DNA of 64,000 nt from an uncultured bacterium. GTDB taxonomy: Bacteria > Acidobacteriota > Aminicenantia > UBA2199. A program made the position numbers and the translations under genes. Positions 14,771 to 59,510 of the stretch are shown piece after piece. Positions within the stretch are counted from its first letter, which is position 1; every line of letters starts with the position of its first letter. The DNA lies in the NCBI GenBank assembly GCA_965371805.1, contig CBDUZW010000005.1, positions 28,926 to 92,925 of the forward strand, read 5' to 3'. The notes under the pieces are model-generated. The model did no database searches and had not been told where the DNA came from. It was given only the letters and a program-made list of their open reading frames with translations.

Positions 14771-15562
14771 ATGAGAAATTTTAAGACAGTGATCTATTCA
14801 TTTGTTTTAGTTATTCTGGGAGTTATGTTCTCAACAAATTTACCTGGAGAATCTAAAGTAAAAAAATCAAGTCCTGATCAGACTATAAAGCAGCTTAAAG
14901 CTGGAAATGAAAGGTTTGTTGAAGGAAAAAGTATACATCCACATACAAATTCTGCCCGTTTAAAACAGGCCGGGACAGAAAACCAGGGAGATCATGCTTA
15001 TGCAACTGTTATTACCTGTTCAGATTCCAGAGTACCGGTAGAGCTTTTATTTGATGCAGGCGTTATGGATATTTTTGTTATCAGGGTTGCCGGCAATGTC
15101 TGTGATGTAGATGAGATAGGATCAATAGAATATGGGCTAGCCCATGTAAATACTCCAGTACTTGTTGTTCTAGGCCACACTCAGTGTGGAGCTGTAACTG
15201 CTGTTACTCATGCTGTTCATGGAACTGGACATGCTTTAGAAAGAAATATTCCTCCTCTAGTAGATAATATTGAGCCTGCAGTACGCCGTGCGATATCTGC
15301 TCATCCTGATGTCAAAGGGAATAATATTATTCCATATGCCATAGAAGAAAATGTCTGGCAGGGTATTGAGGATCTGTTTATGGAGAGTCCTTCGACTAGA
15401 AATCTGGTAAAACAGGGCAAAACTAAGGTTGTTGGAGCTATTTATGATGTCGGCACAGGAAAGGTACATTGGCTGTCAGAATTAACAGTTCAAAACATAC
15501 TTAATAAAGTAAACTCCTCATCAAAAAGAGCAATGAATGCAATGGCAAAAAGTGGCCATTAG
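14771..15562 (+). CDS. Secreted beta-class carbonic anhydrase
   Basis: Signal peptide. Beta-CA zinc-ligand motifs CSDSRV and GHTQCGAV. 263 aa. About 88% identical to the N-terminal domain of the next ORF, a tandem duplicate. Confidence 0.75.
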   Translation: MRNFKTVIYSFVLVILGVMFSTNLPGESKVKKSSPDQTIKQLKAGNERFVEGKSIHPHTNSARLKQAGTENQGDHAYATVITCSDSRVPVELLFDAGVMDIFVIRVAGNVCDVDEIGSIEYGLAHVNTPVLVVLGHTQCGAVTAVTHAVHGTGHALERNIPPLVDNIEPAVRRAISAHPDVKGNNIIPYAIEENVWQGIEDLFMESPSTRNLVKQGKTKVVGAIYDVGTGKVHWLSELTVQNILNKVNSSSKRAMNAMAKSGH

Positions 15563-15580
15563 AAGTAAGGAGAGATTAGT

Positions 15581-18439: not shown

Positions 18440-18928
18440 ATGGAAAAAAATGAATTAATTGATGACGGACAATTATTCACATTTATGTTGAGTAATGAAA
18501 TATATGGAATAGAAATATCTAAAGTCCGTGAGGTTATGGACTTTAAGAAGATAACAACAGTACCGAAGACGCCTGATTTCATGAAGGGCGTGATTAATCT
18601 CCGGGGAGGTGTTGTTCCTGTTATTGATCTGAGATTAAAATTCGGGATGGATGAGACAGAAAAAACCGTTGATACCTGTATCATTATTGTTGATATAACA
18701 GTTGATGGAGAAAAGACCTTTATCGGTGCTTTGGCGGATTCGGTAAAAGAGGTTATTACTATTGAGCCGGAGAATATTGAACCTGCACCAAAGATAGGGA
18801 CAAAACTCGATACGGATTTTATTAAAGGCATGGGTAAACATGATGATGAATTTGTAATAGTTCTGGATATAGAAAAAATATTTACAACAGAAGAACTTGT
18901 AGCCGTAAAAGAGATAGCTAAGGATTAA
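18440..18928 (+). CDS. cheW: Chemotaxis coupling protein CheW
   Basis: 162 aa; QLFTFMLSNEIYGIEISKVREVM...KGVINLRGGVVPVIDLRLKFG is the CheW signature. RBS AAGGAAGGAG. Confidence 0.85.
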   Translation: MEKNELIDDGQLFTFMLSNEIYGIEISKVREVMDFKKITTVPKTPDFMKGVINLRGGVVPVIDLRLKFGMDETEKTVDTCIIIVDITVDGEKTFIGALADSVKEVITIEPENIEPAPKIGTKLDTDFIKGMGKHDDEFVIVLDIEKIFTTEELVAVKEIAKD

Positions 18929-26095: not shown

Positions 26096-27775
26096 CTATT
26101 TATTCTTCATATTTTTCTTTTTAAGATTAGATATCAATTTTATAATAGCTAGAAAAGGCAGTAAAAATATAAAAATAATTCCTCCATAAGAAGTTACGGC
26201 AACATTTCTGTTTAAAATAAGATCCATTCCAAAGTTTGAGAATGGGTTATCATTAATGAGATAAGCCCAGGTTGATGATGGCCGGCTCAATCCTTCCTTT
26301 TTGGGATCAAAATCATCCAGAGACAGTTCCAAATCCTCATAGGTACTTTTTGATTTTTTTGTAATTATTGCAATTAATGTTTTAAATTCATTATGAACCT
26401 GATTTCTATATTGATCCAATGGTTGGACGCCTCCATATCTCATGAGATGTATCCCCTCTTTTATTGCAATTACCCTTTCAAGAAAGTTGCTCCATACTTG
26501 ATCTATATAAAACAAAATAACATATTTTTCTACCTCTCTAATTTTCTCTAATGAATTATTTTTCAGGAGTAAATCATACTTATTGGAACTCAATACTGAC
26601 ACATTAAATATACTAGTATTGCTCTTTAGAATATCTGTCCTTAGTTTCTCAAATATTTCCCTTTGCAACTCTGTGATATTTGAGTAATCCCATAGAGTCT
26701 TTCTGATCTCAAAATTATCGCTCTCTATTATTCTCTGAGCCCTGTTTATCTCTTTTGCAATAAAATGATCTGCTATTGCTTCCTGACTATCCCGGGGCCA
26801 GAATCTTTCTGGGATTATATTATCCAGACGATATCTTTTTATCAAATCATCATCCATACTAATGAAAAACTCGGATACTCCAGGATCCCCCTGCCTTCCG
26901 GCTCTTCCTCTCAGCTGATTATCAATCCGCCTGCTCTCATGTCTGTTTGTCCCGATGATATAAAGCCCACCTGTTTTAGATACAAATTTATATTCCTCTT
27001 TTGATCCAGCCCCCAGATGAATATCAACTCCTCTACCTGCCATATTGGTTGATATTGTTATCTTATAGGGTCTCCCTGCCTCAGCAATGATTTTTGCTTC
27101 CTGTTCATGGTTTTTTGCATTTAAAACACTATGAACGATATCTCTGTCTCTTAACTGCGAACTTAATAATTCCGATTCATAGACGCTTCCAGTCCCGATT
27201 AACACCGGCTGACCTTTTTCATTTATTTCAATTATTTTTTCTAATAAAGCCTTGTCTTTCGCTTCTTTTGAGGAATATATCCTATCCGTTTTATCTATTC
27301 TTCTATTTTTTTTATTAGGCGGAATTATCGTTATCTTAAAATTATAAAAAGAAAAAAACTCACTGGCAGCTTGAACAGCAGTAGCTGTCATACCTGAAAG
27401 ATTTGGATACAGTTTTACAAAATGCTGTATGGTTATTGAGTTAAATATGATTCCTTCTTCATTAATAAAAAGATTTTCTTTCAGTTCTACAGCCTTATGA
27501 ATACCATGAGGCCATCTTCTTTTATCAGCAATTCTTCCAGTAAATTGATCTATAATCTCAATTTTCCCATCCTTTATAATATAGTCCTTATCTTTTTCTA
27601 ATAATACCTTTGCATGCAGGGCTAAATTTACAGCGATAAAGGTTTTTTGGTTCTCAATGGCAAATATATTGGATATACTAAAATGTTTTTCAATCAGAGC
27701 CCAAATGCCGCATAGCTCACAATTCAGACTGGATCTTATACTGGCTAATGAAGTATTCGCAGGTGAACGATTCAA
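26096..27775 (-). CDS. secA: SecA homolog lacking the N-terminal ~300 aa (no NBD1 / Walker A); retains PPXD-NBD2-helical scaffold, with an atypical hydrophobic C-terminal tail
   Basis: HFSISNIFAIENQKTF aligns to SecA ~HFSVDEKSRQVNLTERG. RWPHGIHKAVELKE; NBD2 TNMAGRGVDIHLG...GGLYIIGTNRHESRRIDNQLRGRAGRQGDPGVSEFFISMDDDL; IRA1 LMRYGGVQPLDQYRNQVHNEF. All three frames upstream (27776-27840) contain stops. The C-terminus lacks the zinc finger and ends in a TM-like GGIIFIFLLPFLAIIKLI. Confidence 0.6.
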   Translation of the reverse strand: MNRSPANTSLASIRSSLNCELCGIWALIEKHFSISNIFAIENQKTFIAVNLALHAKVLLEKDKDYIIKDGKIEIIDQFTGRIADKRRWPHGIHKAVELKENLFINEEGIIFNSITIQHFVKLYPNLSGMTATAVQAASEFFSFYNFKITIIPPNKKNRRIDKTDRIYSSKEAKDKALLEKIIEINEKGQPVLIGTGSVYESELLSSQLRDRDIVHSVLNAKNHEQEAKIIAEAGRPYKITISTNMAGRGVDIHLGAGSKEEYKFVSKTGGLYIIGTNRHESRRIDNQLRGRAGRQGDPGVSEFFISMDDDLIKRYRLDNIIPERFWPRDSQEAIADHFIAKEINRAQRIIESDNFEIRKTLWDYSNITELQREIFEKLRTDILKSNTSIFNVSVLSSNKYDLLLKNNSLEKIREVEKYVILFYIDQVWSNFLERVIAIKEGIHLMRYGGVQPLDQYRNQVHNEFKTLIAIITKKSKSTYEDLELSLDDFDPKKEGLSRPSSTWAYLINDNPFSNFGMDLILNRNVAVTSYGGIIFIFLLPFLAIIKLISNLKKKNMKNK

Positions 27776-27799
27776 AACCAGCGGGATCGGCTTTCAATT

Positions 27800-28274
27800 A
27801 AACAGTCAGATAACCAAACAATTATTTTTTCATATATTTTTCAGAAACACAGGAGCAATTTTTTATGATGAAGAAAACCCCTTTGCCGGACGTGCTAATA
27901 GGGCGTCACTTTCTCTTGATTATCAGCCATTTGAAAAAATCAGCAACAGTATAAGTCTTTCTTACTCAAATTTTATCAGAAGCTCAGATAGTGAAATAGA
28001 ATATGATTATACTATTGTGAGAAATTATACAACTTTTCAATTGAATAAATACCTGTTTTTCAGAGGTATTGTTGAATATAATTTTTATAAAAAAATTCTC
28101 CAATTGGATTTTCTGGCATCCTTCACCTATATACCCGGTACCGTAGTGCATATAGGCTATGGATCAATTTTTGAAAAGCAGAAATGGGATGACAATAATT
28201 ATGTTAATAGTGATAGATTCATGGAAAATCATAGAGCATTCTTTTTTAAGGTTTCATACCTGTGGAGACTATAA
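27800..28274 (+). pseudogene. C-terminal fragment of an outer-membrane beta-barrel protein (no N-terminus or signal peptide)
   Basis: Alternating beta-strand pattern YDYTIVRNYTTFQLN / FFRGIVEYNFY / LDFLASFTYIPGTVVHIGYGSIF / AFFFKVSYLWRL. The 5' part of the tracked ORF 27657..28274 is antisense to the secA fragment. Confidence 0.3.
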
Positions 28275-28358
28275 TAATTCTTAGTGGATCTCCGAAAGAG
28301 CTACTTGATTTACCTTTATAATACTTATATAATCATCTCATATTGGAGGCAACACTAA

Positions 28359-28649
28359 ATGATTATTCGAATGGTTAAAATGACTATAGAAGAATCCCGA
28401 AGTAAGAATTTTAAGAAATTCACAGACTCAATTGCTGATTCGATTAAAGAATTTGAGGGTTGTATGCATTTGAAAATATTACAGGAGATACATAAAGATA
28501 ATATTTTTTTTTCCTACAGTATCTGGAAAACTGAGAAAAATCTAAATGCTTATAGAAGTTCCGAGTTTTTTAAAGCTACCTGGTCTAAAGCAAAAACTTT
28601 TTTTTGTATGCCTGCAGAGGCCTGGTCATTTAATGCACCTGAAGAATAG
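28359..28649 (+). CDS. ABM-domain (antibiotic biosynthesis monooxygenase-like) small protein
   Basis: 96 aa; ferredoxin-like beta-alpha-beta pattern with aromatic residues typical of ABM/Dabb proteins. Weak call. Confidence 0.4.
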   Translation: MIIRMVKMTIEESRSKNFKKFTDSIADSIKEFEGCMHLKILQEIHKDNIFFSYSIWKTEKNLNAYRSSEFFKATWSKAKTFFCMPAEAWSFNAPEE

Positions 28650-28847
28650 ACTTTGAATGTCAAGGTAGCAAAATTAACATATGGAATATAATGAAGCTCC
28701 AATAATAAGACTACAATCTGCAAGATTCTTTATTCTTAATTGTTAATATGATATGCTTTAAAATTATAAACTTTTCTATTCCTTAAATGAAAATCTTGAA
28801 ATTGATATGTAAATAGAAAGTTTTAATAGTAGGAGGTTTTAATTAAA

Positions 28848-40363: not shown

Positions 40364-42940
40364 ATGATAAAACAACAAAACAAAATCTATCCATTTACAA
40401 TTTTATCTATCCTCTTTATCCTTTTCTCAAATCTGCCTGCTCAAAATAATACAATAAATTTCCAACATCTATCTTTGGAAGACGGATTGTCGCATAGCAC
40501 TATAAATTGCATTTTTCAAGATAGCAGGGGATTTTTATGGTTTGGAACAGATGATGGTTTAAACAGATATGACGGTTATAATTTTAAAATATTCTTAAAT
40601 GATCCTGAAAAACCTGGAACAATCTCCAGTAATCGCATTAGAGGAATATGCGAAGATGAGGATGGGAATCTCTGGATTGGGACATTTGGTGGATTAAATA
40701 CATTTAATATTAGAACAGGGCGCTTTGCCTCCTATACATTTCATCCTGATATAGAATCAAGACAAAATATAATATGGTCAATGGCTATAAATGATGGATT
40801 CCTATGGGTCGGGACTGAATCCGGATTGATAAAGTTTAATACTAAATCAAAAAAATATAATAACTATAAATTAAATTCAACTCAGTCCAAATTTCAAAGG
40901 AAAACTTTCATAACCATAGTATACATAGATAACTCAAAAAAAATCTGGATTGGAACTAAACATAACGGTTTATATACATTTAAAGAAACAACAAATTCAA
41001 TTGTTCCTTTTAAATATAAACATTCAAAAAACCCGAGTTTCAGAAGTATTAGAAATCTATTCAAAGACCAATCCGGCATATTATGGATCGGCACAGAGTA
41101 TGGAGGTTTAATCAAATATAACAGTCAAAATCAAGAACCTACTTTTTACAAACATATCCCCGGGATTAAGGGATCTATAAGCAGTAATGACATACAATCG
41201 ATATTTGGAACAAAATCAGGAGATCTGTGGATTGGGACCAATGCAAATGGCTTAAACAAGTATAATTCTGCAACAAACAGTTTCACCCTGTACGAACATG
41301 ATCCCAAAAATGCAAACAGCATTAGTCATAACAGTATTCTTTCAATGTATGAGGACAATTCAGGGGTTTTATGGATTGGAACTTATGCAGGAGGGATAAA
41401 CACACTTAACAAAAGTAAAAAAAGATTCGATGTCTTAAAAAATGAACCTGGGAATCCAATCAGCCTCAGTAACAGTACAGTATTTTCAGTTTATGAAGAG
41501 TCTAATGGAATAATCTGGATAGGCACTATTACAGGTTTAAACAGATATGATAGTAAGAATAATCTTTTTAAAGTATATAGTCACGACAAAAACAACCCTA
41601 AAAGTATTAGTCATAATGTTGCAAGAGCTATTTATAAAGATGATAAAGGAAATTTATGGATAGGAACTGATAATGGACTAAATAAATTTAATAGAGAGGA
41701 TGAGACATTTTCTATCTATAGAAACGCCATTACCATTAAGAACTATTCATCCAATTGGCAGAACATAATCCGTTCAATTATTGCTGATAATTCAGGAAAA
41801 CTTTGGATAGGAACACAAAATGGGATCTGTACATTTGATGAAAAAAAAGAACAATTTACATATTATAGATATGATGAAAATAATCAAAACAGTCTTTCAT
41901 CAAATACAGTCAGAGTATTATTAAATGACAGAGACGGTCTTATATGGATAGGCACTGAGAATGGATTAAATAAATTTAATCCAGAAACAAAAGAATTTTT
42001 CATTTATAAACACAACCCCAAAAACCCGCATAGCATTAGTAGTGATAATATCTATAGTATCTTAGAAGATAAAAAAGGTCTGATTTGGATTGGAACAAAA
42101 AAAGGATTAAATGCTTTAAACAGAAAAACAGGTCTATTTACAAACTATACAGAACATGACGGATTGGGAAATGATATTGTATACTGCATTCTTGAATCTA
42201 ACGACAATAATTTATGGCTCAGTACTGATAAAGGCATAACAAAGGCATATAATAGCTTAAAAAACATTGACTCATCAGTAAAAGATCAAAAATTGAAATT
42301 TAGAAATTTTGATATAAAAGATGGTGTGCAGGGACATGAGTTTAATTCAGGCGCCTCATTCAAAAGTAATAAGGGAACTTTGTACTTTGGAGGAATGAAT
42401 GGATTAAATATATTTGACCCGGAAAAAATAATGACTGATAACAGCTATATTCCGCCTGTAGTCTTAACTGAGTTCAGATTATTTTCTGAAAAAATATCCA
42501 TACACTCAAGGATCGATGGAAAAACCATATTAAGTAAGCCAATAGAATTGACAGAAAAAATAGTACTTCCTTATAATGCAAACTATATCTCCTTTAAATT
42601 CACAGCATTAGATTTCACTTGCACAAAAAACAATAAATTTGCCTATATGATGAAAGGATTAAGCAATGAATGGCACTACCTTGGCACAAAAAACGAACTT
42701 GATTTTCATCTTTCTCCAGGAACATTTATTTTAAACATAAAAGGTTCAAATAGTGACCATGTCTGGAATGAAAATGGAGTATCGATAACAATCATTATAA
42801 ATCCCCCTTTTTGGACTACAATATGGTTTAGAATAGCCGTTTCCATGTTTGTCTTTTTAGTGATATTTTCACTATACAGAGTCAGAATATACAATATTAA
42901 AAAAAAAATATCCAACTCAGCAACCATAATGAACAATTAA
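40364..42940 (+). CDS. Hybrid sensor, part 1: signal-Reg_prop repeats-Y_Y_Y-TM; terminated prematurely after an A10 homopolymer (42899..42908)
   Basis: GLSHSTINCIFQDSRGFLWFGTDDGLNRYDG and 13 or more further propeller repeats. Y_Y_Y segment and TM TIWFRIAVSMFVFLVIF. The stop falls 11 codons after the A10 tract. Confidence 0.7.
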   Translation: MIKQQNKIYPFTILSILFILFSNLPAQNNTINFQHLSLEDGLSHSTINCIFQDSRGFLWFGTDDGLNRYDGYNFKIFLNDPEKPGTISSNRIRGICEDEDGNLWIGTFGGLNTFNIRTGRFASYTFHPDIESRQNIIWSMAINDGFLWVGTESGLIKFNTKSKKYNNYKLNSTQSKFQRKTFITIVYIDNSKKIWIGTKHNGLYTFKETTNSIVPFKYKHSKNPSFRSIRNLFKDQSGILWIGTEYGGLIKYNSQNQEPTFYKHIPGIKGSISSNDIQSIFGTKSGDLWIGTNANGLNKYNSATNSFTLYEHDPKNANSISHNSILSMYEDNSGVLWIGTYAGGINTLNKSKKRFDVLKNEPGNPISLSNSTVFSVYEESNGIIWIGTITGLNRYDSKNNLFKVYSHDKNNPKSISHNVARAIYKDDKGNLWIGTDNGLNKFNREDETFSIYRNAITIKNYSSNWQNIIRSIIADNSGKLWIGTQNGICTFDEKKEQFTYYRYDENNQNSLSSNTVRVLLNDRDGLIWIGTENGLNKFNPETKEFFIYKHNPKNPHSISSDNIYSILEDKKGLIWIGTKKGLNALNRKTGLFTNYTEHDGLGNDIVYCILESNDNNLWLSTDKGITKAYNSLKNIDSSVKDQKLKFRNFDIKDGVQGHEFNSGASFKSNKGTLYFGGMNGLNIFDPEKIMTDNSYIPPVVLTEFRLFSEKISIHSRIDGKTILSKPIELTEKIVLPYNANYISFKFTALDFTCTKNNKFAYMMKGLSNEWHYLGTKNELDFHLSPGTFILNIKGSNSDHVWNENGVSITIIINPPFWTTIWFRIAVSMFVFLVIFSLYRVRIYNIKKKISNSATIMNN

Positions 42941-42999
42941 ATAGACAGATTTTAGAAAAAGAACTTGCAGAAAAAGAGACAAAAAAACTTCAAAATTAT

Positions 43000-44481
43000 A
43001 TGAGCAATATTATTGATTCAATGCCTTCAATTTTGATTGGAATAGATGCTTTTGGTAAGGTGACTCAATGGAATAAAACCACAGAACAAACTACTGGAAT
43101 TAGTGCTTCAGCTGCTCAGGGACAAAATCTTTCCGTTGTATTCCCCAGGATTGAATCTGAAATAAAGAATATTATTGACAGTATTCAATCCCGGGAAACA
43201 ATCCGGAAGTTAAAAAAGACCCATAATAATGAAGACTTGTTATTTGAAAACTTGACGGTCTATCCTTTAACAGCTGACGACATAAAAGGTGCTGTGATAA
43301 GGATTGACGATGTTACTAGAGAAAAAAAACTGGAAGAGCAATTGAGTCAAAGCCAGAAAATGGATGCAATCGGACAACTTGCAGGCGGTATTGCACATGA
43401 TTTCAATAATATGCTTGGAGGAATAATGGGAGCTGCCGAGCTCTTAAAACTCCCCAAAAGAAATATTGATCAGAAAGGGATAGAATTAGTTGATCTTATT
43501 CTTATTGCTTCGAAACAGGCAGCAGATCTAACAGCTAAATTATTAGCACTTGGTCATAAAAGTAAAGTATTTTCAACTGTGGTAGATATACATAAGATCA
43601 TAGATGACACCATTGCAATATTAAATAGAACAATAGACAGAAAGATAAAACTTATTTTAACAAAAGAAGCAGAAAGTCATAACGTAATTGGTAATAGTTC
43701 AAGCTTACAAAATATTCTTCTAAACCTGGGAATAAATGCAGCGCATGCAATGACTGATAGTGGCATAATTCAGATTAAAACAAAAAACAGTAAACTGGAC
43801 AAATCTTATTGTGAGTTCAGTCCATTTGATATTAAACCTGGCGAATATATTGAAATTGAAATAAGGGACTCCGGTTGTGGAATTTCAAGTGAGAATATGA
43901 AGAAAATCTTCGAGCCATTTTTTACCACAAAAGATCAGGGTAAAGGATCCGGACTCGGCTTAGCTGCTGTCTATGGAACAGTAAAATCTCATCAAGGAGC
44001 TGTAACAATAGACAGTTTATTAAATGTAGGTACATCCTTTCATGTATTTCTTCCATGTTCAAAAAAAACTGCTGATCCTGAACACAGTGATGTTGAAATA
44101 CAATATGGGACAGGTCAGATCCTCCTCATTGATGATGAAAAAATCATCAGAAAAACCGGCAAAGGAATGCTTGAAGAGATGGGATATAAGGTTATCACAG
44201 CAAAAAATGGTAAAGAAGGTGTTGATGTATACAGAAATATGTATAAAGAAATTGACATTATAATAATGGACATGATTATGCCTGAGATGAATGGACGTGA
44301 AGCTTTCTTAAAAATGAAAGAGATAAACAAAAACTGCAAGGTGATAATAGCATCCAGTTTTGCAAAAAAAGAGGTGCTTGATGAATTGGATAAAGCTGAT
44401 TTGTCCGGTTTTATAAGCAAACCCTTTAACTATCCTGAAATGGGGAAATTGATATCTGAGGTCTTATCAAAAGAACATTGA
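43000..44481 (+). CDS. Hybrid sensor, part 2: PAS-HisKA-HATPase_c-REC; its frame is open upstream to the A10 tract and is probably continuous with 40364..42940
   Basis: PAS (IGIDAFGKVTQWNKTTEQTTG). H-box AHDFNNMLGGIMG. G-boxes DSGCGIS...GSGLGLA. Receiver ILLIDDEKIIR...IIMDMIMPEMNG. The frame reads ...IQLSNHNEQLNRQILEKELAEKETKKLQNYMSNII back to 42909. Confidence 0.7.
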   Translation: MSNIIDSMPSILIGIDAFGKVTQWNKTTEQTTGISASAAQGQNLSVVFPRIESEIKNIIDSIQSRETIRKLKKTHNNEDLLFENLTVYPLTADDIKGAVIRIDDVTREKKLEEQLSQSQKMDAIGQLAGGIAHDFNNMLGGIMGAAELLKLPKRNIDQKGIELVDLILIASKQAADLTAKLLALGHKSKVFSTVVDIHKIIDDTIAILNRTIDRKIKLILTKEAESHNVIGNSSSLQNILLNLGINAAHAMTDSGIIQIKTKNSKLDKSYCEFSPFDIKPGEYIEIEIRDSGCGISSENMKKIFEPFFTTKDQGKGSGLGLAAVYGTVKSHQGAVTIDSLLNVGTSFHVFLPCSKKTADPEHSDVEIQYGTGQILLIDDEKIIRKTGKGMLEEMGYKVITAKNGKEGVDVYRNMYKEIDIIIMDMIMPEMNGREAFLKMKEINKNCKVIIASSFAKKEVLDELDKADLSGFISKPFNYPEMGKLISEVLSKEH

Positions 44482-50048: not shown

Positions 50049-51437
50049 TCATTGATCTGTAGACTTATCTTCTATTATATTCAATTGTTCCATTCGATAG
50101 CGTAATATACGCTCACTAATCCCAAGAATTTTTGCAGACTTTACTTTAATACCGCCAGTTAGTCTTAAAGCCTCGCCGATATATTTTCTTTCTATAGATT
50201 CAATTACTTCAGGTAGTTTTCTACCGGAATGGACCAGATCCAGTTCAAATTGATCGTCTTTATTGAGAAATACCCCAATATCTTCATCGTCCAGATAATC
50301 AGAATTAGTAAGAATCACAGCTCTTTCTATCAAATTCTCCAACTCCCTTATATTTCCTGGAAAATGGTAATTAATAAGATTTTTTAAAGTATTTCTTTTT
50401 ATTCCCTTAATTATTTTATTTTCCCTCGTTGAAAATTTTAAAATGAAAAAATCTATCAGACAGGGAATATCTACTTTTCTTTCTCTCAAACTTGGGACAT
50501 CTATTCTGATCACATTTAGTCTATAAAACAGATCTTCCCTGAATTTCTTTTCTCTGACAAGATCTTCCATCTTTTGATTTGTTGCAGCAATTATTCTCAC
50601 ATCAGTTTTTACTGGCGTTGAAGAACCAAGCCTATACACTTCCTTATCTTGAATTGCCCTTAATATTTTCACTTGAGATGATATAGCAAGGTCTCCAATT
50701 TCATCTAAAAACAAAGTGCCTTTATGTGCAGCTTCAAATTTCCCTATTAACCTTCTATCAGCTCCAGTAAAGGATCCTTTTTCAGCTCCGAACAGCTCTG
50801 ATTCTAAAAGGGTTTCTGGAATTGCTGCAATGTTAATTTTAACCATTGGAGCGCTTTTTCTGTCTGATGCATTATGAATTATATCTGCAATTCTATCTTT
50901 TCCAGTCCCGGTTTCTCCACCAATCAATACTGTTGCTTCACTTTTAGCAACCTTCAATGCCATTTTGACTATTTTTTTCATTTTTCTGGAATTACAAATA
51001 AACTCTTTATCAGGTAAAACATCCTTTACCAACTCTTTCAGTCGTTCTACTTCAAGATTTAAGTTTAAAAATTCTATTGTTTTTTTTACTCTTAATAATA
51101 ATTCTTCTTTTTTTACCGGTTTACGTATAAAATCAAATGCACCATTTTGCATTGCCTCTACGGCCAGTTCAAGATTTCCAAAAGCAGTAACCATTATAAC
51201 TTTAGTTATCGGAGAGTTTTCCTGTATCTTTGGTAAGATATCCAATCCGGTCATATCACCCAATTTGTAATCAAGCAATAAAATATCAAAAACTTTTTCA
51301 TTAAATCTTTCTAAAAAATCACTGCCTGATTTAAATGTAGTTACATCAAATCCTTCATTAACAAGAATATCCCTGCTTAGATTTCTATGTAACTCTTCAT
51401 CATCAATAATGCCTATAATAATCAAGTTCTTATCCAT
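50049..51437 (-). CDS. Sigma54-dependent response regulator (NtrC family: REC-AAA+ sigma54 activator-Fis HTH)
   Basis: REC (IIGIIDDEELHRNLSRDILVNEGF...LLDYKLGDMTG). Walker A GETGTGKD. ESELFGAEKGSFTGA (GAFTGA). C-terminal HTH AKILGISERILRYRM. Confidence 0.85.
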   Translation of the reverse strand: MDKNLIIIGIIDDEELHRNLSRDILVNEGFDVTTFKSGSDFLERFNEKVFDILLLDYKLGDMTGLDILPKIQENSPITKVIMVTAFGNLELAVEAMQNGAFDFIRKPVKKEELLLRVKKTIEFLNLNLEVERLKELVKDVLPDKEFICNSRKMKKIVKMALKVAKSEATVLIGGETGTGKDRIADIIHNASDRKSAPMVKINIAAIPETLLESELFGAEKGSFTGADRRLIGKFEAAHKGTLFLDEIGDLAISSQVKILRAIQDKEVYRLGSSTPVKTDVRIIAATNQKMEDLVREKKFREDLFYRLNVIRIDVPSLRERKVDIPCLIDFFILKFSTRENKIIKGIKRNTLKNLINYHFPGNIRELENLIERAVILTNSDYLDDEDIGVFLNKDDQFELDLVHSGRKLPEVIESIERKYIGEALRLTGGIKVKSAKILGISERILRYRMEQLNIIEDKSTDQ

Positions 51438-51786
51438 ATATTTTTATATCATAAAAATATAAAAATTGCCAGTTTTACAACTCTTATAATACAGCTCATC
51501 AAAAATTATCATTTTAAATTCTTTATCCCTACAGGTTGTCCAGCTAATCCATTACTTATAATTTAGAAGCCTGGATAAGAGTAATAGTCAATCAGATTAA
51601 AGGATTATATTCATTTACATGTTATTGATTTTAATAATATATTATTAATCTCCAGTACTTCCAATAATTCATATTAATGGTTTCTTCATTTCCTCATTCC
51701 TTTATATAAAAGATTATAAGCTATTATTTAAAATAAATTTGTTTTGTTTCAAGATTTTTTTTTAAAATTCATTTTTCTTCTCCTTT

Positions 51787-53433
51787 CTATCTGTTAATTG
51801 TGAACCTTTTACTGCATGAATTATCCCGTTCATTAATTTCCTCAATAGTATTGTCAGGATCTACAGTCACAATCATTCTATACCTTTTTCCTTTTTTAAA
51901 TATACATGAAAATGATCTTGTATCAAATAAAATTCCACCTTGTTTTTTAATTGTAAGTTTGATGTTTAGATGATAAGTCTGACCACCTGTTATTAATGGG
52001 ATAATTGAATCGTGTTCCTTTTCACAAAATACATCGCCATCAACAGACTTGATCTCAAGTTTTACTTTAACGTTTCGTAAACTTGCACTTGAATCAACTC
52101 CATAACTACCACTAAACTTATATTTTCTGCCAATTTTGGTAACTCTTACCGAAAAACATGTAATTGTAAGGTTTTTCCAAGAAACAGAAATAGTTTTTGT
52201 ATTATTGCTCTCATCTGATTCGGGTATTCTTAAATTTGAATCTATCATACATGAGATAGTCTTATTGACCCTTCCTTCTAGAAAAAGACTTAATCCAATT
52301 AATGATACATCTTTAATAACACCTTTGCTCAGGTTTAGCCATTTAGTGACTCGTTTTACGGGAGAAACAGCCATAAATTCAATATTTCCTCTAAAGTTTG
52401 AATTATTGCTTCTTACTCTGGCATGAAGCCTTCCATTATCTGCAAAAATTTCTACTATTTCCAGATCTGTGACTGTAGAAGCACCTTGCTGGGGACTAAC
52501 ATCAGTTGTCTTAATCTCAAAGTCTCTGCTTCTACCGGAAATTTCTCCCTGTTCAACTCTAATAAAGTAATTTCCAGATTCAAAATCTGAAGGGATTTGC
52601 CAGTCAAATCCAGATGCGTTATACCTTATACTTTCTATAATAGTAATTCCACCTGATCCATCGGCCTTTCTTAAGTTGACTCTTACATTTCCGGTAATTC
52701 CTACTGCCCGCCATCTTCCTGATATGGTGGCACCCCTGGAACTTCTCAGAACTTGAGAATGTTGGACAGTAATTGACGACGGAAGTGATGCAGCTATACT
52801 AAAAATGGAAGAATCGTCTCCAACAAGATTGTCTATTGTTTTGACTCTGATTGTATAACTCCCATTGGCAACACTATTTGGGACATTCCAGCTAAAACTT
52901 CCATCATTTGTAGTACTATTTGAAATATCTAAAATCTTTGTTGTCCCTGCTGGATTATACAAACGGATCTTTACTGATGCATCTTGAGGTCCAGATTTTG
53001 TCCATTGGATGTTATATGAGCCCCCTTTTGCTACAGTTTCACTTAATACTGGTTTTGTTACTGTAATTGTAGCAGCTGGAGATGGAACATCTGAAATTGT
53101 AAAAACTCCACTATCATCCCAAGTTACATTGTCAAGGGTTTTTACTCTAACAACATAATTGCCATTTGCTACACTATTTGGGACCGGCCAAGAAAAACTT
53201 CCATTATTTGCTGTACTATTTGTAATATCTAAAATCTTTATTGTACCTGCTGTATTATACAAGCGGATCTTTACTGATGCATCTTGAGATCCAGATTTTG
53301 TCCATTGTATAGTATAAGGACTCCCTTTTACTACAGTTTCACCTGATGCAGGTTTTGTAACTGTTATAGTAGCAGCTGACAACATTCCCATAGTTATAAT
53401 TATAACTAACATAAATAATAATAATCTTTTCAT
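51787..53433 (-). CDS. Secreted protein with three tandem ~90-aa Ig-like (Kre9/KNH-like) repeats and a C-terminal CARDB-like domain
   Basis: Likely start MKRLLLFMLVIIITMG with a GGAGGG RBS. The tracked ORF extends to a TTG at 53484. Repeats ATITVTKP.SGETV.KGS.Y.IQWTKSG.QDASVKIRLYN.AGT.KILDI.NST.N.GSFSW.VPNSVANG.Y..RVKT. Confidence 0.45.
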   Translation of the reverse strand: MKRLLLFMLVIIITMGMLSAATITVTKPASGETVVKGSPYTIQWTKSGSQDASVKIRLYNTAGTIKILDITNSTANNGSFSWPVPNSVANGNYVVRVKTLDNVTWDDSGVFTISDVPSPAATITVTKPVLSETVAKGGSYNIQWTKSGPQDASVKIRLYNPAGTTKILDISNSTTNDGSFSWNVPNSVANGSYTIRVKTIDNLVGDDSSIFSIAASLPSSITVQHSQVLRSSRGATISGRWRAVGITGNVRVNLRKADGSGGITIIESIRYNASGFDWQIPSDFESGNYFIRVEQGEISGRSRDFEIKTTDVSPQQGASTVTDLEIVEIFADNGRLHARVRSNNSNFRGNIEFMAVSPVKRVTKWLNLSKGVIKDVSLIGLSLFLEGRVNKTISCMIDSNLRIPESDESNNTKTISVSWKNLTITCFSVRVTKIGRKYKFSGSYGVDSSASLRNVKVKLEIKSVDGDVFCEKEHDSIIPLITGGQTYHLNIKLTIKKQGGILFDTRSFSCIFKKGKRYRMIVTVDPDNTIEEINERDNSCSKRFTINR

Positions 53434-53479
53434 TTTTCCCTCCAAAAATGTATTTTCAAATTTCTCACATAAAACATAC

Positions 53480-53495
53480 AGCAAAAAATATGCCA
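53480..53495 (-). promoter_or_regulatory. Sigma54 (-24/-12) promoter TGGCAT-N5-TTGCT upstream of the secreted repeat-protein gene
   Basis: Reverse complement of 53480-53495 is TGGCATatttTTTGCT, close to the consensus TGGCAC-N5-TTGCA, about 47 nt upstream of the ATG. Upstream inverted repeats (GACAAG-GCTATATATAGC-N6-CTTGTC at 53549-53578; CAAACAA-N6-TTGTTTG at 53579-53598) are candidate enhancer sites. Confidence 0.45.
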
Positions 53496-53708
53496 GATAT
53501 AAATATTTTCTATTTAAAAAATCAATATTGTTTTATATAACAGAGATAGACAAGGCTATATATAGCTCTGGGCTTGTCAAACAAAAATAATTGTTTGTTA
53601 ATTTATAATTGATTTCAAAATGTATTAATTCAATTCTGACAATTTTGTTGTTTTTTCAACAAATTTGTTGGATTTACATATAGCTCAATCTGTTTGTTTT
53701 AAATCAAA

Positions 53709-56700
53709 TTATGTAGAATAATTGTCTTTAACAGGAAGAAGGACATAAAAAATGCTTCCTTTGGGAAAATTGTTTAGATAACCGATTGTTCCATCATGTG
53801 CTTCTATAATAAGCCGGGCTACTGCCAGGCCCAGACCGGTACCCTTAATTGAGGAAATCTGGTCTTTTTTTAATTGATAATATTTATCAAAAAGGTATTG
53901 GACACTTGCTTTATCAACTCCTGATCCTTCATCAATCACTGAAAACTCTTGAAAAACAGCATTATCTTTGATGGTCTTATTTAATCTTAGAGTAATCCAA
54001 CCATTTTTTGGAGAATATTTTAAGGCATTTGTCAACAGGTTATTAACTAATTGGGTCATACGCATCTGATCCAGTAAAATAGGCTGCAGATTTTCAAATT
54101 CAGTCTTGATTTGGAGGTTTCTATTTTTTAAAAGGGGTATCATCAAAGATACAGAATCTTCAATAATGCTCTGAAAAGGAATTATCTCTTTAGATAGAAT
54201 CATTTTTCCTGATTCAAATTTAAAAACATTTAAAATATCATCAATTATTTTCAACATTATGTCTGCTGATTTTGTAATAACATTATTTATTTTTTTGATA
54301 TTCTCCTTATCAGGTTGTTCATTTAAAACACTTGAATATCCCACTATATTATTAAGAGGACTTCCAAGATCATGTACGAGCATAGCAACAAAATCTTTCT
54401 TTAACTTGAGCTCACTTTTTAAATGATCTCTTTTCAATCTTGATTTTATTACCCTTATTCTTATTCTATAAAAAGTAAATATAATAAATAAAAATGCTAA
54501 GACTAATATTCCCTTAAACCATATTCTTTGCCAGAAAGGAGGTGTAATAGTGATAAGAAGTTTCGCCCCTTTCTTATTCCAGATGCCATCATTATTGGTC
54601 CCCAAAACCTTAAAAACATATTCTCCCGGATCCAGATTTGTATAAGAGACAAATCTACGAGCACCTGAATTTATCCACTCAGAGTCAAGACCCTCTAATT
54701 GATAGGAATATTTGCTTTTCCCGGAAATACGGTAATCGAGAGCAGCGAATTTAAAAGAAAAAAAATTTTCTTTATATGATAATACAATTTTATTTGTATA
54801 ATTTATTGGGTTTTTTAAGAATAAACTGGATTCATGATCAACAGGTTTATTAAATAATTGAAATTCAGTAATCAAGATTTCAGGTTTATATTGGTTATCT
54901 ACAATTTCTTCAGGTTTAAATATATTAAACCCATTGATGCCGCCAAATAACATTTCATTGTTTTTCCTTTTAAAACAAGCTCCCTGATTAAATTCATTAC
55001 TCTGCAAACCATCCCCTTGATCATAATTTTTAAATGTTTCAGATTTTGGATCAAATTTTGACAAGCCCAGATTGGTACTGAACCATAGAAGGCCCTTTTC
55101 ATCCTCCAATAATCCATAAATTACTTCATTGCTCATTCCATTTTTACTGTTAAATCTAACAAATTTTTTTAATTCTCTATCAAATTTGTTTAATCCCCCA
55201 TAAGTTCCAATCCATAAAGAGCCTGATTTATCTTCATAAATAGTAGTGATAATATTATTACTTATACTATTTTTGTCACCTTGAATATTTTTAAAATGAG
55301 TGAATTTATTTTTTTGAACATCAAACTTATTTAATCCTCCTCCGGATGTCCCAACCCAGAAATTGTTTAGTTTATCATTGTATATGGATAATACATAATT
55401 ATGACTTAAACTTGTCGGATCTCCAGGAATGTTTTTATAATGTGTGAACTTTTTTAAGATTGGATCAAATTTGTTTAAACCTCCAAGTTCTGTTCCAATC
55501 CAGATAATGCCTTCTTTATCTTCATATAATTTCCAAATTAAATTATCACTTAAACTATCCGGATCATTACTATTGGATAGAAAATGTACAAATTGGTTCG
55601 TTTCTTTGTTTAACATATTTAATCCACCACCATAAGTACCAACCCATAAAACGCCTTTTCTATCTTCTAATATTGATACCACAGCATTATTGTTTAAACT
55701 ATATGGATCTTTTGGATCATGAAGATATTGCTTATATTTATTTTTATATCTATCAAATCGATTTAAACCGCCCAGATAAGTGCCTATCCATATTATTTTT
55801 GAACGATCTTCATAAAGAGCCCATATATAATTATCACTAAGTTCATTTTCACCATCTGATTCATTGCAAAAATGTAAAAATTTCTTCCTATTTAAATCTA
55901 ATCTATTTACCCCTCCACCAAATGTCCCTATCCAAAGGATACCAGAATCATCCTCAACAATCGATAAGATTGAATTATGACTAATACTTCTTGAGTTTTT
56001 TATCGAATTTTTGAAATGTGTAAATGTATTAGTTTTGCGATTATATCTGTTCAATCCATCTCTATATGTACCAACCCATAGATCTCCATCTGTATCTTCA
56101 TAGATTGTTGAAACACTATTATTGCTTAAACTTTTACTATCAATTGGATTATTTATAAATTTAATAAACTGATCTGTTTTGGAATTATATAGATTGACAC
56201 CTCCCAATGCAGTACCAATCCAAAGTGATTTATGACTATCCATAAATACAGTTTGGATATAATTATCAGATAAGCTTTCAAGATTATCTTTTTGACTCTT
56301 ATAAACATCAAATATATTGTTTTTCTGATTATATCTATTTAATCCACCACCATAAGTTCCAACCCAAAGGTTTCCAAATTTATCTTCACAAATTGAAGTA
56401 ACATAGTTATGACTCAAACTTCTGGAATTGAGAGGATCATTTTTATTATGTGAAAAGTCACCTCTTATTTTTGAAAATTTATTCACCCCACCATTCCGGG
56501 TTCCAATCCACAATGTATTTGATGAGTCTCCATATAGACAGGTAATAAAATTACCACTTATGCTCCTTGGATTACCAGAAATATTTTTATAATGTTCAAA
56601 TCTCTCATTTTGAGGGTCATATCTATTAAGTCCCCCACCATGTGTTCCTATCCATATTATCCCATCTTTATCTTCAAAAATTGCCAGGATATAATTATTA

Positions 56701-57065
56701 CTAATGCTATTAATATCATTTAAATTATTTTTAAATATTTTAAATGAGTATCCATCATATCTGTTCAAACCGTCCTCAGTTCCAAACCACATAAATCCCT
56801 GTTTATCCTGTAATACACAAAATACAGAATTTTGTGAAAGACCATTATCAATTGACAGACTATCAAATTTTATATTATTTTCCCCTTGAACAGTACAGAT
56901 AAAACCTACAAAAAATATTACAATCAAAAAAAAAAGTACTCTATCTTTTTTTCTAAGCATACAAATATAATACCTTAAAAAAAACAAATTGTTAACACTT
57001 AAATTAAAAATATTGCAAAATCCCTCTGAATTCCACCTACTACATAAATGTAAACAAAGTGACAA
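53709..57065 (-). CDS. Reg_prop/Y_Y_Y transmembrane sensor histidine kinase (HisKA + HATPase_c, no receiver)
   Basis: Likely start MLRKKDRVLFFLIVIFFVGF. About 14 propeller repeats. Y_Y_Y. TM ILVLAFLFIIFTFY. H-box LVHDLGSPLNNI. G-box SVIDEGSGVD...GTGLGLAV. Confidence 0.75.
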   Translation of the reverse strand: MSLCLHLCSRWNSEGFCNIFNLSVNNLFFLRYYICMLRKKDRVLFFLIVIFFVGFICTVQGENNIKFDSLSIDNGLSQNSVFCVLQDKQGFMWFGTEDGLNRYDGYSFKIFKNNLNDINSISNNYILAIFEDKDGIIWIGTHGGGLNRYDPQNERFEHYKNISGNPRSISGNFITCLYGDSSNTLWIGTRNGGVNKFSKIRGDFSHNKNDPLNSRSLSHNYVTSICEDKFGNLWVGTYGGGLNRYNQKNNIFDVYKSQKDNLESLSDNYIQTVFMDSHKSLWIGTALGGVNLYNSKTDQFIKFINNPIDSKSLSNNSVSTIYEDTDGDLWVGTYRDGLNRYNRKTNTFTHFKNSIKNSRSISHNSILSIVEDDSGILWIGTFGGGVNRLDLNRKKFLHFCNESDGENELSDNYIWALYEDRSKIIWIGTYLGGLNRFDRYKNKYKQYLHDPKDPYSLNNNAVVSILEDRKGVLWVGTYGGGLNMLNKETNQFVHFLSNSNDPDSLSDNLIWKLYEDKEGIIWIGTELGGLNKFDPILKKFTHYKNIPGDPTSLSHNYVLSIYNDKLNNFWVGTSGGGLNKFDVQKNKFTHFKNIQGDKNSISNNIITTIYEDKSGSLWIGTYGGLNKFDRELKKFVRFNSKNGMSNEVIYGLLEDEKGLLWFSTNLGLSKFDPKSETFKNYDQGDGLQSNEFNQGACFKRKNNEMLFGGINGFNIFKPEEIVDNQYKPEILITEFQLFNKPVDHESSLFLKNPINYTNKIVLSYKENFFSFKFAALDYRISGKSKYSYQLEGLDSEWINSGARRFVSYTNLDPGEYVFKVLGTNNDGIWNKKGAKLLITITPPFWQRIWFKGILVLAFLFIIFTFYRIRIRVIKSRLKRDHLKSELKLKKDFVAMLVHDLGSPLNNIVGYSSVLNEQPDKENIKKINNVITKSADIMLKIIDDILNVFKFESGKMILSKEIIPFQSIIEDSVSLMIPLLKNRNLQIKTEFENLQPILLDQMRMTQLVNNLLTNALKYSPKNGWITLRLNKTIKDNAVFQEFSVIDEGSGVDKASVQYLFDKYYQLKKDQISSIKGTGLGLAVARLIIEAHDGTIGYLNNFPKGSIFYVLLPVKDNYST

Positions 57066-57204
57066 AATTGTCAGTCCCTACATAACACAAAACCTGTCTC
57101 ACAATAATTAAACAGCAATATAGGACGTTACTAGAAAGACATTTTCACAATTTTTCTTTGGCATATTACTTGCATTGAAATATATTAATTAAAGGGAGAA
57201 AAAA

Positions 57205-57708
57205 ATGAAAAAAAAAATTAAAGTTTTGATGTTTCTTGGAACAATGTGTTTAGTATTGGTAATAATGCAGCCGCTTTCAGCTTTTAACCAGGCAAACGTA
57301 ATGAAGAAACCCATAAAACCATTAAAGTTTGCTGTAGACGTTTATATAAGGGCAATTTCAGTTGAGCAATGTCTTTGTGAAAATGATTTAAGCCGCAATT
57401 TTAATGCCCTCGCACCTAAAAAAGTTGCAGTTATCCTCTACAATGAACACACAAGAAGTGTAAAGGTTGAAACAACACTCACATACTATAATCTTGCCAA
57501 CAAAAAAATAACAATAAAAAGGATTTCTGATCTACCCTCAAAAAGAACAAGATGGGTTACTTTTATAAATTCTTACAAATTGATAAAAAAATCATCACGT
57601 ATCTCTGCCTATATAAGAATAATAGATAGTAGATATTCTGACAAAAACACATCCAATAACAAAAAATCAATAAAAGAATGTCCCCATATGTTGAATAGAA
57701 AAATCTAG
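57205..57708 (+). CDS. Hypothetical secreted protein
   Basis: Signal peptide MKKKIKVLMFLGTMCLVLVIMQPLSA. No recognisable domain. Confidence 0.35.
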   Translation: MKKKIKVLMFLGTMCLVLVIMQPLSAFNQANVMKKPIKPLKFAVDVYIRAISVEQCLCENDLSRNFNALAPKKVAVILYNEHTRSVKVETTLTYYNLANKKITIKRISDLPSKRTRWVTFINSYKLIKKSSRISAYIRIIDSRYSDKNTSNNKKSIKECPHMLNRKI

Positions 57709-57908: not shown

Positions 57909-59081
57909 ATGACTTACTTTACTCATCTGGAATGTGGAAATTGTGGAAAGATTCTCAATAAAGACAAAATTTGGAATCTATGCCCGGATTGCTCAAAGCC
58001 TTTACTTGCAAGATATGATCTTAAAAGAGCAGGAAAAATAATTGACAGAGATCAGCTTAAACTAAGAGACCAGACTATGTGGAGATATAGAGAGTTATTG
58101 CCGGTAGCCGATGCATCAAAGATCGTTACCCTTGGAGAAGGAGGAACCCCACTTCACCGGGCTAAAAACCTTGAAAATCTGATAGGATTCAAGAATGTCT
58201 ATATAAAAGATGAAGGCGTTAATCCAACAGGCTCATTTAAAGCCAGAGGACTGGGAATGGCCGTTTCCAGAGCTCACGAACTGGGAATAAAATCACTTTC
58301 GATCCCAACAGCCGGGAATGCTGGTGGTGCAATGAGTGCCTATGCTTCTCTTGCTAAAATGGAAGCACATGTATTTATGCCCGCAGATGTCCCAAAACCA
58401 TTCATAAACGAATGTAAGGTTCTCGGGGCTACAGTTACACTGATAGATGGAGTCATAACTGACTGTGGAAAAGCTGCTGCTTCTGAGCTTAAAAAATTCA
58501 ACCGATTTGATGTGTCCACTCTAAAAGAACCATATAGAATTGAAGGCAAAAAAACTATGGGTTATGAGCTGGCCGAACAAATGGAATGGAAACTTCCAGA
58601 TGTAATTGTTTATCCAACTGGTGGTGGAACCGGACTAATTGGAATGTGGAAAGCCTTTGATGAGATGGAACAATTAGGATGGATAGGATCAAAAAGGCCC
58701 CGGATGGTTTCAGTTCAATCAGAAGGCTGTGCTCCAATAGTAAAAGCATTTGAAAAAGGTGAAAAGTTTGCAGAATTCTGGAAAGATGCCGCTACTATCG
58801 CAGATGGGATGAGGGTCCCGGCAGCTGTTGGAGATTTTCTGATTTTAAAAGCACTGGAGGAAAGTAATGGATTTGCCCTTACTGTGAGTGATAAGGATAT
58901 ATTAAAATACTCAAAATTAATGGGAGATACCCAGGGTATATTTCCGGCTCCTGAAGGAGCAGCAACTTTAGCTGCATTAATAAAAATGATATCAAAAAAA
59001 CTTATAAAAAATGGAGACAGTGTCGTACTTTTTAACACAGGAAGCGGTCATAAATACTCTCAGATATGGGATAATATTTAA
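57909..59081 (+). CDS. thrC: Threonine synthase
   Basis: N-terminal Cys-rich LECGNCGK...CPDCSKPL. PLP site GSFKARGLGMAVS. 390 aa. Confidence 0.8.
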   Translation: MTYFTHLECGNCGKILNKDKIWNLCPDCSKPLLARYDLKRAGKIIDRDQLKLRDQTMWRYRELLPVADASKIVTLGEGGTPLHRAKNLENLIGFKNVYIKDEGVNPTGSFKARGLGMAVSRAHELGIKSLSIPTAGNAGGAMSAYASLAKMEAHVFMPADVPKPFINECKVLGATVTLIDGVITDCGKAAASELKKFNRFDVSTLKEPYRIEGKKTMGYELAEQMEWKLPDVIVYPTGGGTGLIGMWKAFDEMEQLGWIGSKRPRMVSVQSEGCAPIVKAFEKGEKFAEFWKDAATIADGMRVPAAVGDFLILKALEESNGFALTVSDKDILKYSKLMGDTQGIFPAPEGAATLAALIKMISKKLIKNGDSVVLFNTGSGHKYSQIWDNI

Positions 59082-59117: not shown

Positions 59118-59510
59118 CTACTTATTTACTAATGCTTTAACAACATTTGTAAGCTGATCAAATGAGTATGGTTTTTCAATATAACTGACATTCTTATATT
59201 TTAAAATTTCATCTATGCTATCATCTTTTTTTGTGCCGGAAGCAATTAAGACTTTTATATCCTCATTATGTTTTTTTATCTCAGTTAGAACTTCAATACC
59301 TGATTTTCTTGGCATCATAAGGTCAAGAATTATAAAACTCAATTCTTCTTTATTTTCAATAAAAACTCTAATACCTTCCTCTCCATCCTCAGCATGGATA
59401 ACATCAAATCCCATTTCCGAAAGAATAGCTGCAGCGACTTTTCTTATAATTGGTTCATCATCAACAACTAGTGCAAGTTCTTTATAATTATGTTTGTGAT
59501 TTTTTTTCAT
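59118..59510 (-). CDS. Stand-alone CheY-like response-regulator receiver
   Basis: LALVVDDEPIIRKVAAAILSEMGFDVIHAEDGEEG...IILDLMMPRKSGIEVL...VLIASG; 130 aa. Confidence 0.8.
   Translation of the reverse strand: MKKNHKHNYKELALVVDDEPIIRKVAAAILSEMGFDVIHAEDGEEGIRVFIENKEELSFIILDLMMPRKSGIEVLTEIKKHNEDIKVLIASGTKKDDSIDEILKYKNVSYIEKPYSFDQLTNVVKALVNK

Follow-up and report, generated by a model that had tools for sequence, protein, structure and literature searches.

Two-component systems that act through sigma54 share a common plan. In NtrB/NtrC, ZraS/ZraR, AtoS/AtoC and the Aquifex proteins NtrC1 and NtrC4, a separate HisKA/HATPase_c kinase serves a regulator built from a receiver (REC), an AAA+ domain with a GAFTGA-type loop and an HTH_8 domain, and the -24/-12 promoter has dyad-symmetric sites about 100-200 bp upstream. 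The sensors of these classical systems are PAS or periplasmic four-helix domains. A different arrangement is found in the Bacteroides hybrid two-component system (HTCS) BT4663 (Protein Data Bank, PDB, 4A2L/4A2M), in which a periplasmic sensor of ~800 residues that binds a glycosaminoglycan fragment is followed by Y_Y_Y, a transmembrane (TM) segment, HisKA and HATPase_c. There, a receiver and an AraC-type helix-turn-helix (HTH) are fused onto the kinase, and polysaccharide-utilisation loci are driven from non-sigma54 promoters. Here we describe a locus in a 64-kb stretch of contig CBDUZW010000005.1 from an uncultured bacterium of the Acidobacteriota (the whole stretch is called the window below), in which a kinase with a sensor homologous to that of BT4663 lies near a separate regulator of the NtrC type.

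The minus strand carries, in this order, the kinase, a secreted repeat protein and the NtrC-type activator, all within 7 kb, and a second secreted protein is encoded divergently from the kinase (Table 1). The locus is most likely a two-component circuit of known type, in which a sensor kinase and a sigma54-dependent activator switch on two neighbouring secreted-protein genes. Judged from its sequence, a self-contained sigma54 two-component regulon with two secreted outputs is plausible. A sequence-only reading of this DNA had proposed a complete circuit of kinase, activator and one sigma54-driven secreted protein. Pfam searches and inspection of the letters recovered the elements it had named at or near the places where it had put them, and the domains, motifs and promoters agree with it; however, it had overlooked the second sigma54 output (57205..57708), and the locus is larger than it had supposed.

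Since the kinase has no fused receiver and AraC HTH, the system is not an HTCS despite its HTCS-type sensor. The regulator is a separate bacterial enhancer-binding protein (bEBP), and no carbohydrate-active genes adjoin the locus. In functional terms its domains describe a classical NtrC-type system, an NtrB/NtrC-like pair with an HTCS-type sensor, for which dyad-symmetric sites at the usual distance are predicted. It departs from the classical systems in its propeller/Y_Y_Y sensor, in a regulator that reaches no named equivalog cutoff and in its outputs, two secreted proteins with no assigned function. The PEP-CTERM pair PrsK/PrsR is similar, since it too combines a kinase with a sigma54-dependent regulator, and its proposed targets are secreted or surface proteins. 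However, with 366 bits the activator described here falls short of the TIGR02915 cutoff (502.6 bits), PEP-CTERM sorting signals are absent from both outputs, and the window open reading frames (ORFs) scanned for domains, which comprised nearly all those of at least 150 aa and one of 130 aa, include no exosortase gene.

Domain shuffling of this sort is the norm among two-component systems, and the locus leaves the understanding of two-component or sigma54 systems unchanged. A search of the accessible literature found no description of a propeller kinase paired with sigma54 output. If the reading is correct, the locus is a compact sigma54 regulon that comprises a single sensor and a single activator, a pair of promoters and a short motif as candidate enhancer; it would link the glycan-sensing propeller domain of Bacteroides to enhancer-dependent transcription and offer a first way into the regulation of two uncharacterised families of secreted proteins.

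Sensor kinase and sigma54-dependent activator

The kinase matches Pfam Reg_prop over 11 stretches (2.3e-81), Y_Y_Y (3e-19), HisKA and HATPase_c. Neither the 1083-aa protein nor a 1118-aa version matched Response_reg or any HTH family, HTH_AraC included, in Pfam, and the protein ends just after HATPase_c. The sequence-only reading was thus right to call it a Reg_prop/Y_Y_Y histidine kinase without a receiver; the start that it gave, at 57065, is less probable. The TTG at that position is merely the first possible start codon of the ORF 53709..57065. Because the ATG at 56960 (MLRKKDRVLFFLIVIFFVGF...) yields MLRKKDR and then a hydrophobic anchor, which is a normal signal-anchor N-terminus, we placed the start there, and the gene is probably 53709..56960 rather than the ORF extending to 57065. 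The catalytic motifs are intact: the H-box, HDLGSP, contains H863, and the N, G1 and G2 boxes are found at 978, 1010 and 1040. A domain of ~800 residues is bracketed by two TM-like segments, one near residues 5-28 and the other near 812-838, and residues 8-812 match the periplasmic sensor of BT4663 (PDB 4A2L) with an E-value of 3e-130. The closest receiver-less kinases of the same architecture (P0031, P0041 and P0053) are 45% identical, and genes for a GH127 glycosidase and a sulfatase adjoin two of the three; by analogy, such neighbours fit a glycan ligand.

A precedent for the coupling of this sensor type to sigma54 comes from P0113, in which a Reg_prop/Y_Y_Y sensor is naturally fused to Sigma54_activat and HTH_8. 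Its existence implies that Reg_prop/Y_Y_Y sensors do drive sigma54 activators. In P0113 the sensor is joined straight to the AAA+ domain with no phosphorelay, whereas here the link is a kinase and a receiver domain. The fusion protein (1263 aa) is encoded at 6001-9792 of L116, a Logan contig from SRR20820740. A one-mismatch sigma54 motif lies in the divergent region upstream of its gene (L116 5750-5765), and a second bEBP is encoded on the same contig.

The window itself holds three Reg_prop/Y_Y_Y sensors in 64 kb, with three different outputs: 2040-4778(-), 40364-44481(+) and the kinase at 53709-56960(-). One of the other two is fused to a GerE/LuxR HTH. The remaining one lacks an output domain, and 60 nt beyond it a cytoplasmic PAS-HisKA-HATPase-REC protein is encoded.

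The activator has the REC-AAA-HTH order of the NtrC family that had been read from its sequence. Response_reg covers residues 9-117 (5e-28), Sigma54_activat matches over 167 of its 168 profile positions (1.5e-67), AAA_lid_14 is also matched, and a C-terminal Fis-type HTH is found at residues 412-451 (HTH_8, 7.8e-09). The receiver has an acidic pocket of D12 and D13 (DDE at 12-14), the phospho-acceptor D56 in LLLDY and K105 in FIRKP. The AAA+ domain has Walker A (GETGTGK at 174), Walker B (LFLDE at 242) and, as the sigma54-contact loop, GSFTGA at 221, a variant that two sigma54 regulon studies count among those retaining activation (PMC4641369, PMC6615313). To judge from these motifs, the protein carries everything required of a sigma54 activator.

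The closest solved relatives of the activator are the Aquifex NtrC-family proteins (4L4U, 1NY5) and ZraR. Its NCBIfam equivalog scores are 412 bits for AtoC (the best; cutoff 714), 365 for NtrC (cutoff 559) and 361 for ZraR (cutoff 760), each below the cutoff, and it is therefore an unnamed member of the NtrC family. Its nearest relatives in genome and metagenome contig scans are only 40-44% identical, and the source lineage is for this reason apparently poorly sampled. It is the sole bEBP in the window, and both exact sigma54 promoter motifs described below lie less than 6 kb away.

Table 1. Features of the locus, in order of position in the window
Feature	Position	Strand	Basis
NtrC-family sigma54-dependent response regulator (REC, AAA+, Fis-type HTH), 462 aa	50049..51437	-	Pfam and motifs
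Non-coding gap of 349 bp, repeat-protein gene to regulator gene	51438..51786	-	Consensus scans
Secreted repeat protein, 548 aa: signal peptide, three Kre9_KNH-type Ig-like domains, CARDB-like C-terminal half	51787..53433	-	Pfam, AlphaFold2 (AF2)
Promoter-like element A, TGGCATATTTTTTGCT (TGGCAT-N5-TTGCT)	53480-53495	-	Exact consensus match
Inverted repeat GACAAG-N6-GCTATATATAGC-CTTGTC, about -109 to -80 of promoter A	53549-53578		Sequence reading
Two tandem RACAA-WW-TTGTY palindromes, 20 bp apart, about -170 to -200 of promoter A: candidate upstream activator sites	53638-53649, 53658-53669		Motif count
Sensor histidine kinase, 1083 aa: signal anchor, double beta-propeller (Reg_prop), Y_Y_Y, TM, HisKA, HATPase_c	53709..56960	-	Pfam
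Palindrome TGACAAAATTGTCA, about -125 to -112 of promoter B, ~100 bp upstream of kinase ATG: candidate upstream activator site	57060..57073		Motif count
Promoter-like element B, TGGCATATTACTTGCA	57159-57174	+	Exact consensus match
Second predicted output: 167-aa secreted protein, small uncharacterised family	57205..57708	+	Signal peptide, phmmer

Promoter motifs and palindromes flanking the kinase gene

Two sites in the window match the consensus TGGCAY-N5-TTGCW exactly, where 0.18 would be expected; 2 of 100 shuffles reach this number. Both are intergenic, correctly oriented and 30-50 nt before a start codon with a Shine-Dalgarno sequence, and they flank the kinase gene. Correctly placed pre-start positions of this kind make up roughly 2% of the window, and both exact matches fall there. 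Their GG and GC dinucleotides are 10 nt apart, the canonical spacing. Matches with one mismatch occur at chance level (10 vs 7.4 expected) and mostly within genes. On these counts, a coincidence of two exact, correctly placed motifs beside the sole bEBP of the window would be very unlikely.

Promoter A, which the sequence-only reading had described as near-consensus, matches the consensus exactly when the 64 kb are scanned. Its start site is predicted near 53469, and a GGAGGG ribosome-binding site (53443-53438) precedes the ATG at 53433; the GC element lies 47 nt upstream of that ATG. Promoter B, absent from the sequence-only reading, lies across the kinase gene in the divergent intergenic region. 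Its predicted start site, near 57185, is followed by an AGGGAGA ribosome-binding site, and the ATG at 57205 is 31 nt downstream of the element.

Upstream activator sites of bEBPs typically lie ~80-200 bp upstream of the promoter and have dyad symmetry, and tandem dyads two helical turns apart are typical. Three copies of the 12-bp palindrome RACAA-WW-TTGTY are present in the window, where 0.27 would be expected, and none of 100 shuffles reached three, although the pattern was set after the sites had been seen and these statistics are optimistic. All three are 110-200 bp upstream of promoters A and B, with none elsewhere in the window; counted from the predicted start sites, the single copy is at about -113 to -124 and the tandem pair at about -170 to -200. 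The copy near promoter B, TGACAAAATTGTCA, is also the sole TGACAA-N(0-30)-TTGTCA inverted repeat in the window. An exact 13-mer, ACAAAATTGTCAG, is common to the two promoter regions (53636-53648 and within the palindrome at 57060-57073); a shared word of this length has a P of about 0.024 in Markov resamples of the two regions, which taken alone is modest evidence. In region A the 13-mer lies 20 bp from a related perfect 14-bp palindrome, CAACAAATTTGTTG (53657-53670), and a repeat search reports the two as a tandem 20-bp repeat.

The 12-bp palindrome with GACAAG/CTTGTC flanks to which the sequence-only reading had drawn attention is also present: GCTATATATAGC occupies 53555-53566, and its flanks are asymmetric, one being separated from it by 6 nt and the other directly adjoining it. 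By position and distribution, the RACAA-WW-TTGTY palindromes are a good candidate enhancer, likelier than this TATATATA palindrome, whose element bears two GACAA/TTGTC half-sites at a distance of 20 nt and might serve as an additional site or as a bendable spacer. No integration host factor consensus was found between enhancer and promoter in either region.

The proposed circuit and its alternatives

We consider a sigma54-dependent two-component regulon with two local outputs the best explanation of the locus, and a fairly probable one. In such a regulon the membrane kinase would sense a periplasmic or extracellular ligand, by homology most likely an oligosaccharide, through its BT4663-type double propeller and Y_Y_Y domain. 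It would autophosphorylate at H863 and pass the phosphate to D56 of the NtrC-type regulator. The phosphorylated regulator would then assemble on the RACAA-WW-TTGTY palindromes, of which two tandem copies lie downstream and one upstream of the kinase gene, and its GSFTGA loop, together with ATP hydrolysis, would open sigma54 holoenzyme complexes at the two promoters flanking that gene. Transcription from promoter A would yield the 548-aa Ig-repeat/CARDB-like protein, and transcription from promoter B, divergent from the kinase, the 167-aa cysteine-containing secreted protein.

We give about even weight to a wider proposal, that in a poorly sampled lineage a glycan-type, BT4663-like periplasmic propeller sensor has been rewired from the fused AraC output of the Bacteroides style to a separate NtrC-type activator. 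This activator would fire a pair of sigma54 promoters from copies of a 12-bp palindrome to either side of the kinase gene, and one promoter would drive a member of an undescribed family of small secreted proteins with conserved cysteines at 56, 58 and 159.

Besides the optimistic palindrome statistics, several observations weigh against the regulon, some of them in general and others by favouring a particular alternative. The factor itself, presumably encoded by an rpoN gene of the source genome, is not represented in the window: no rpoN/Sigma54 domains were found among the ORFs scanned. No orthologous locus was found: the nearest relatives of the activator lack the neighbouring genes, and in the genome and metagenome contig scans none of 110 activator-homologue loci had the kinase and output genes together.

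The pairing of kinase and regulator, which we infer from their proximity on the same strand (<7 kb) and from the intact H863 and D56, with indirect support from the P0113 fusion, is the point at which the strongest alternative applies. The circuit could be real but the propeller kinase not cognate to it; the kinase would signal to another receiver, at 59118..59510 for example or elsewhere, and the bEBP would be phosphorylated by a different kinase. One gene does intervene between kinase and regulator. In addition, no bEBP was found near P0031, P0041 or P0053, whose three contexts contain GH127/sulfatase or unrelated genes, so that the nearest homologues of the kinase are orphans without an adjacent regulator. 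Other phosphotransfer partners are also at hand in the window, including a hybrid kinase (43000..44481) and further kinases; the main alternative partner is a stand-alone receiver of 130 aa at 59118-59510(-), which is convergent with thrC and 2 kb from the kinase gene. However, this receiver lies beyond thrC, an unrelated housekeeping gene, whereas the kinase gene is bracketed by both promoter/enhancer regions and shares one strand and less than 7 kb with the two other genes, and fused propeller-bEBP proteins exist. We therefore regard a non-cognate kinase as unlikely.

A second alternative concerns the promoters. One or both sigma54 motifs might be chance matches in AT-rich intergenic DNA, in which case sigma70-type promoters would transcribe the genes and the targets of the bEBP would lie elsewhere. 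The two shuffles that gave two matches are consistent with this, as is the P of only about 0.02 for the shared 13-mer alone, and a sigma70-like TTGGCA-17-TATATT overlaps promoter B. Furthermore, no sigma54 motif was found upstream of the homologues of the output proteins in other organisms (L056, L117). Sigma54 control would therefore be specific to this locus and not a trait of the family. Against chance, both motifs fall within the roughly 2% of correctly placed positions, stand beside the only bEBP and share a palindrome that is unique to their surroundings in the window. The sigma70-like sequence carries no weight, since a scan for sigma70 promoters is uninformative in DNA of 33% GC (55 sites vs 51 in shuffles). 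Chance motifs are thus distinctly unlikely as an explanation.

It is highly improbable that the palindromes downstream of the kinase gene act in RNA, as terminators or attenuators of the kinase transcript instead of protein-binding enhancers: although the inverted repeats lie just past the kinase stop codon, the terminator reading of the repeat at 53549-53578 was rejected (a weak, AT-rich hairpin of -7.8 kcal/mol, z -0.94, with no T-run, in a region where the terminator scan is empty), and the RACAA-WW-TTGTY palindrome has another copy upstream of the kinase gene, at a place where a terminator would serve no purpose.

Predicted secreted outputs and other genes of the window

Both predicted outputs of the sigma54 regulon carry a signal peptide, and they possibly function in surface or matrix binding. 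For the first of them, the sequence-only reading had claimed three Ig-like repeats and a CARDB-like domain. The repeats are borne out, Kre9_KNH matching at 3.4e-24 with two significant Ig-like stretches and a third that has diverged (E 0.013 when searched alone). The CARDB-like tail holds as a partial match only: in a whole-protein search CARDB scores 45.8 bits (7.3e-12) at residues 505-541, which correspond to the last 37 profile positions. In the middle domain the CARDB match is weak (E 0.043) and the AF2 model unreliable. The C-terminal half consists of two segments, each with a CARDB-like motif at its end. An AlphaFold model built from a 22-sequence alignment has three confident beta-sandwiches in residues 20-310, with a predicted local distance difference test score (pLDDT) of about 80-97, whereas residues 346-548 score below 50 and leave the C-terminal half without a confident model. 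Foldseek searches with the model returned generic tandem Ig/MG arrays only, and the sole hydrophobic segment of the protein is N-terminal.

Relatives of the repeat protein are encoded on one 8,714-bp contig (P0002, P0003, P0006 and P0011) and elsewhere (P0005, P0007 and P0016); they are partial-length matches with 53-79% identity over 21-56% of the query. Several such relatives on one short contig suggest a tandemly expanded family of Kre9_KNH repeat proteins in the source organism or a close relative. Between the repeat-protein gene and the regulator gene, consensus scans of 51438..51786 found no intrinsic terminator, sigma54 motif or other recognisable promoter, and the sequence of the gap makes read-through from promoter A into the regulator gene possible. 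A 7-codon mini-ORF with a strong ribosome-binding site lies in the same gap (51438-51786), directly after the repeat-protein stop codon.

The second output has no Pfam or NCBIfam family match, and the members of its family likewise have no Pfam match. A word-indexed search gave only a self-match, as expected of an ORFan, but this status was overturned by phmmer against 1.84 billion representatives, which found 25 relatives, mostly of 145-178 aa. Across the family D45, C56 and C159 are invariant, and C58, N80 and N151-N152 nearly so. From this conservation, we take the 167-aa protein to be a real member of a small, undescribed family of secreted proteins. Paralogy with the CARDB-like C-terminus of the repeat protein was rejected, as BLASTP was not significant and hhalign gave a probability of 1.2%; the two share only a 14-residue xDxNxSNN motif in the hhalign comparison of the 167-aa protein with the C-terminal half. 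A single-sequence AF2 model of the 167-aa protein was unusable (pLDDT 39). The next gene, 57909..59081, encodes threonine synthase (thrC; 583 bits against a 303-bit cutoff); it follows after a 200-bp gap and is probably independent.

Elsewhere in the window, a secA-like ORF of 559 aa within 26096-28847(-) starts only within the preprotein cross-linking domain, so that the N-terminal motor domain is missing, and every minus-strand frame is interrupted by stops in the roughly 1 kb upstream of it. The ORF may represent a remnant of a truncated secA or a second SecA-like gene, or it may reflect a problem of assembly. The segment 31939-37623(-) holds a cluster resembling the LysX/LysW-type amino-adipate pathway of lysine (or arginine) synthesis, with genes for a homocitrate synthase-like protein, a RimK/LysX ATP-grasp protein, a semialdehyde dehydrogenase, an amino-acid kinase and a class-III aminotransferase. 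Finally, a 916-aa protein encoded within 14771-18331(+) combines a beta-carbonic-anhydrase domain (Pro_CA) with HAMP and a methyl-accepting chemotaxis protein (MCP) signalling domain. A stand-alone Pro_CA paralogue (14771..15562) is encoded before it and cheW (18440..18928) lies after it, and the Pro_CA-HAMP-MCP protein could be a chemoreceptor of the CO2/bicarbonate type.

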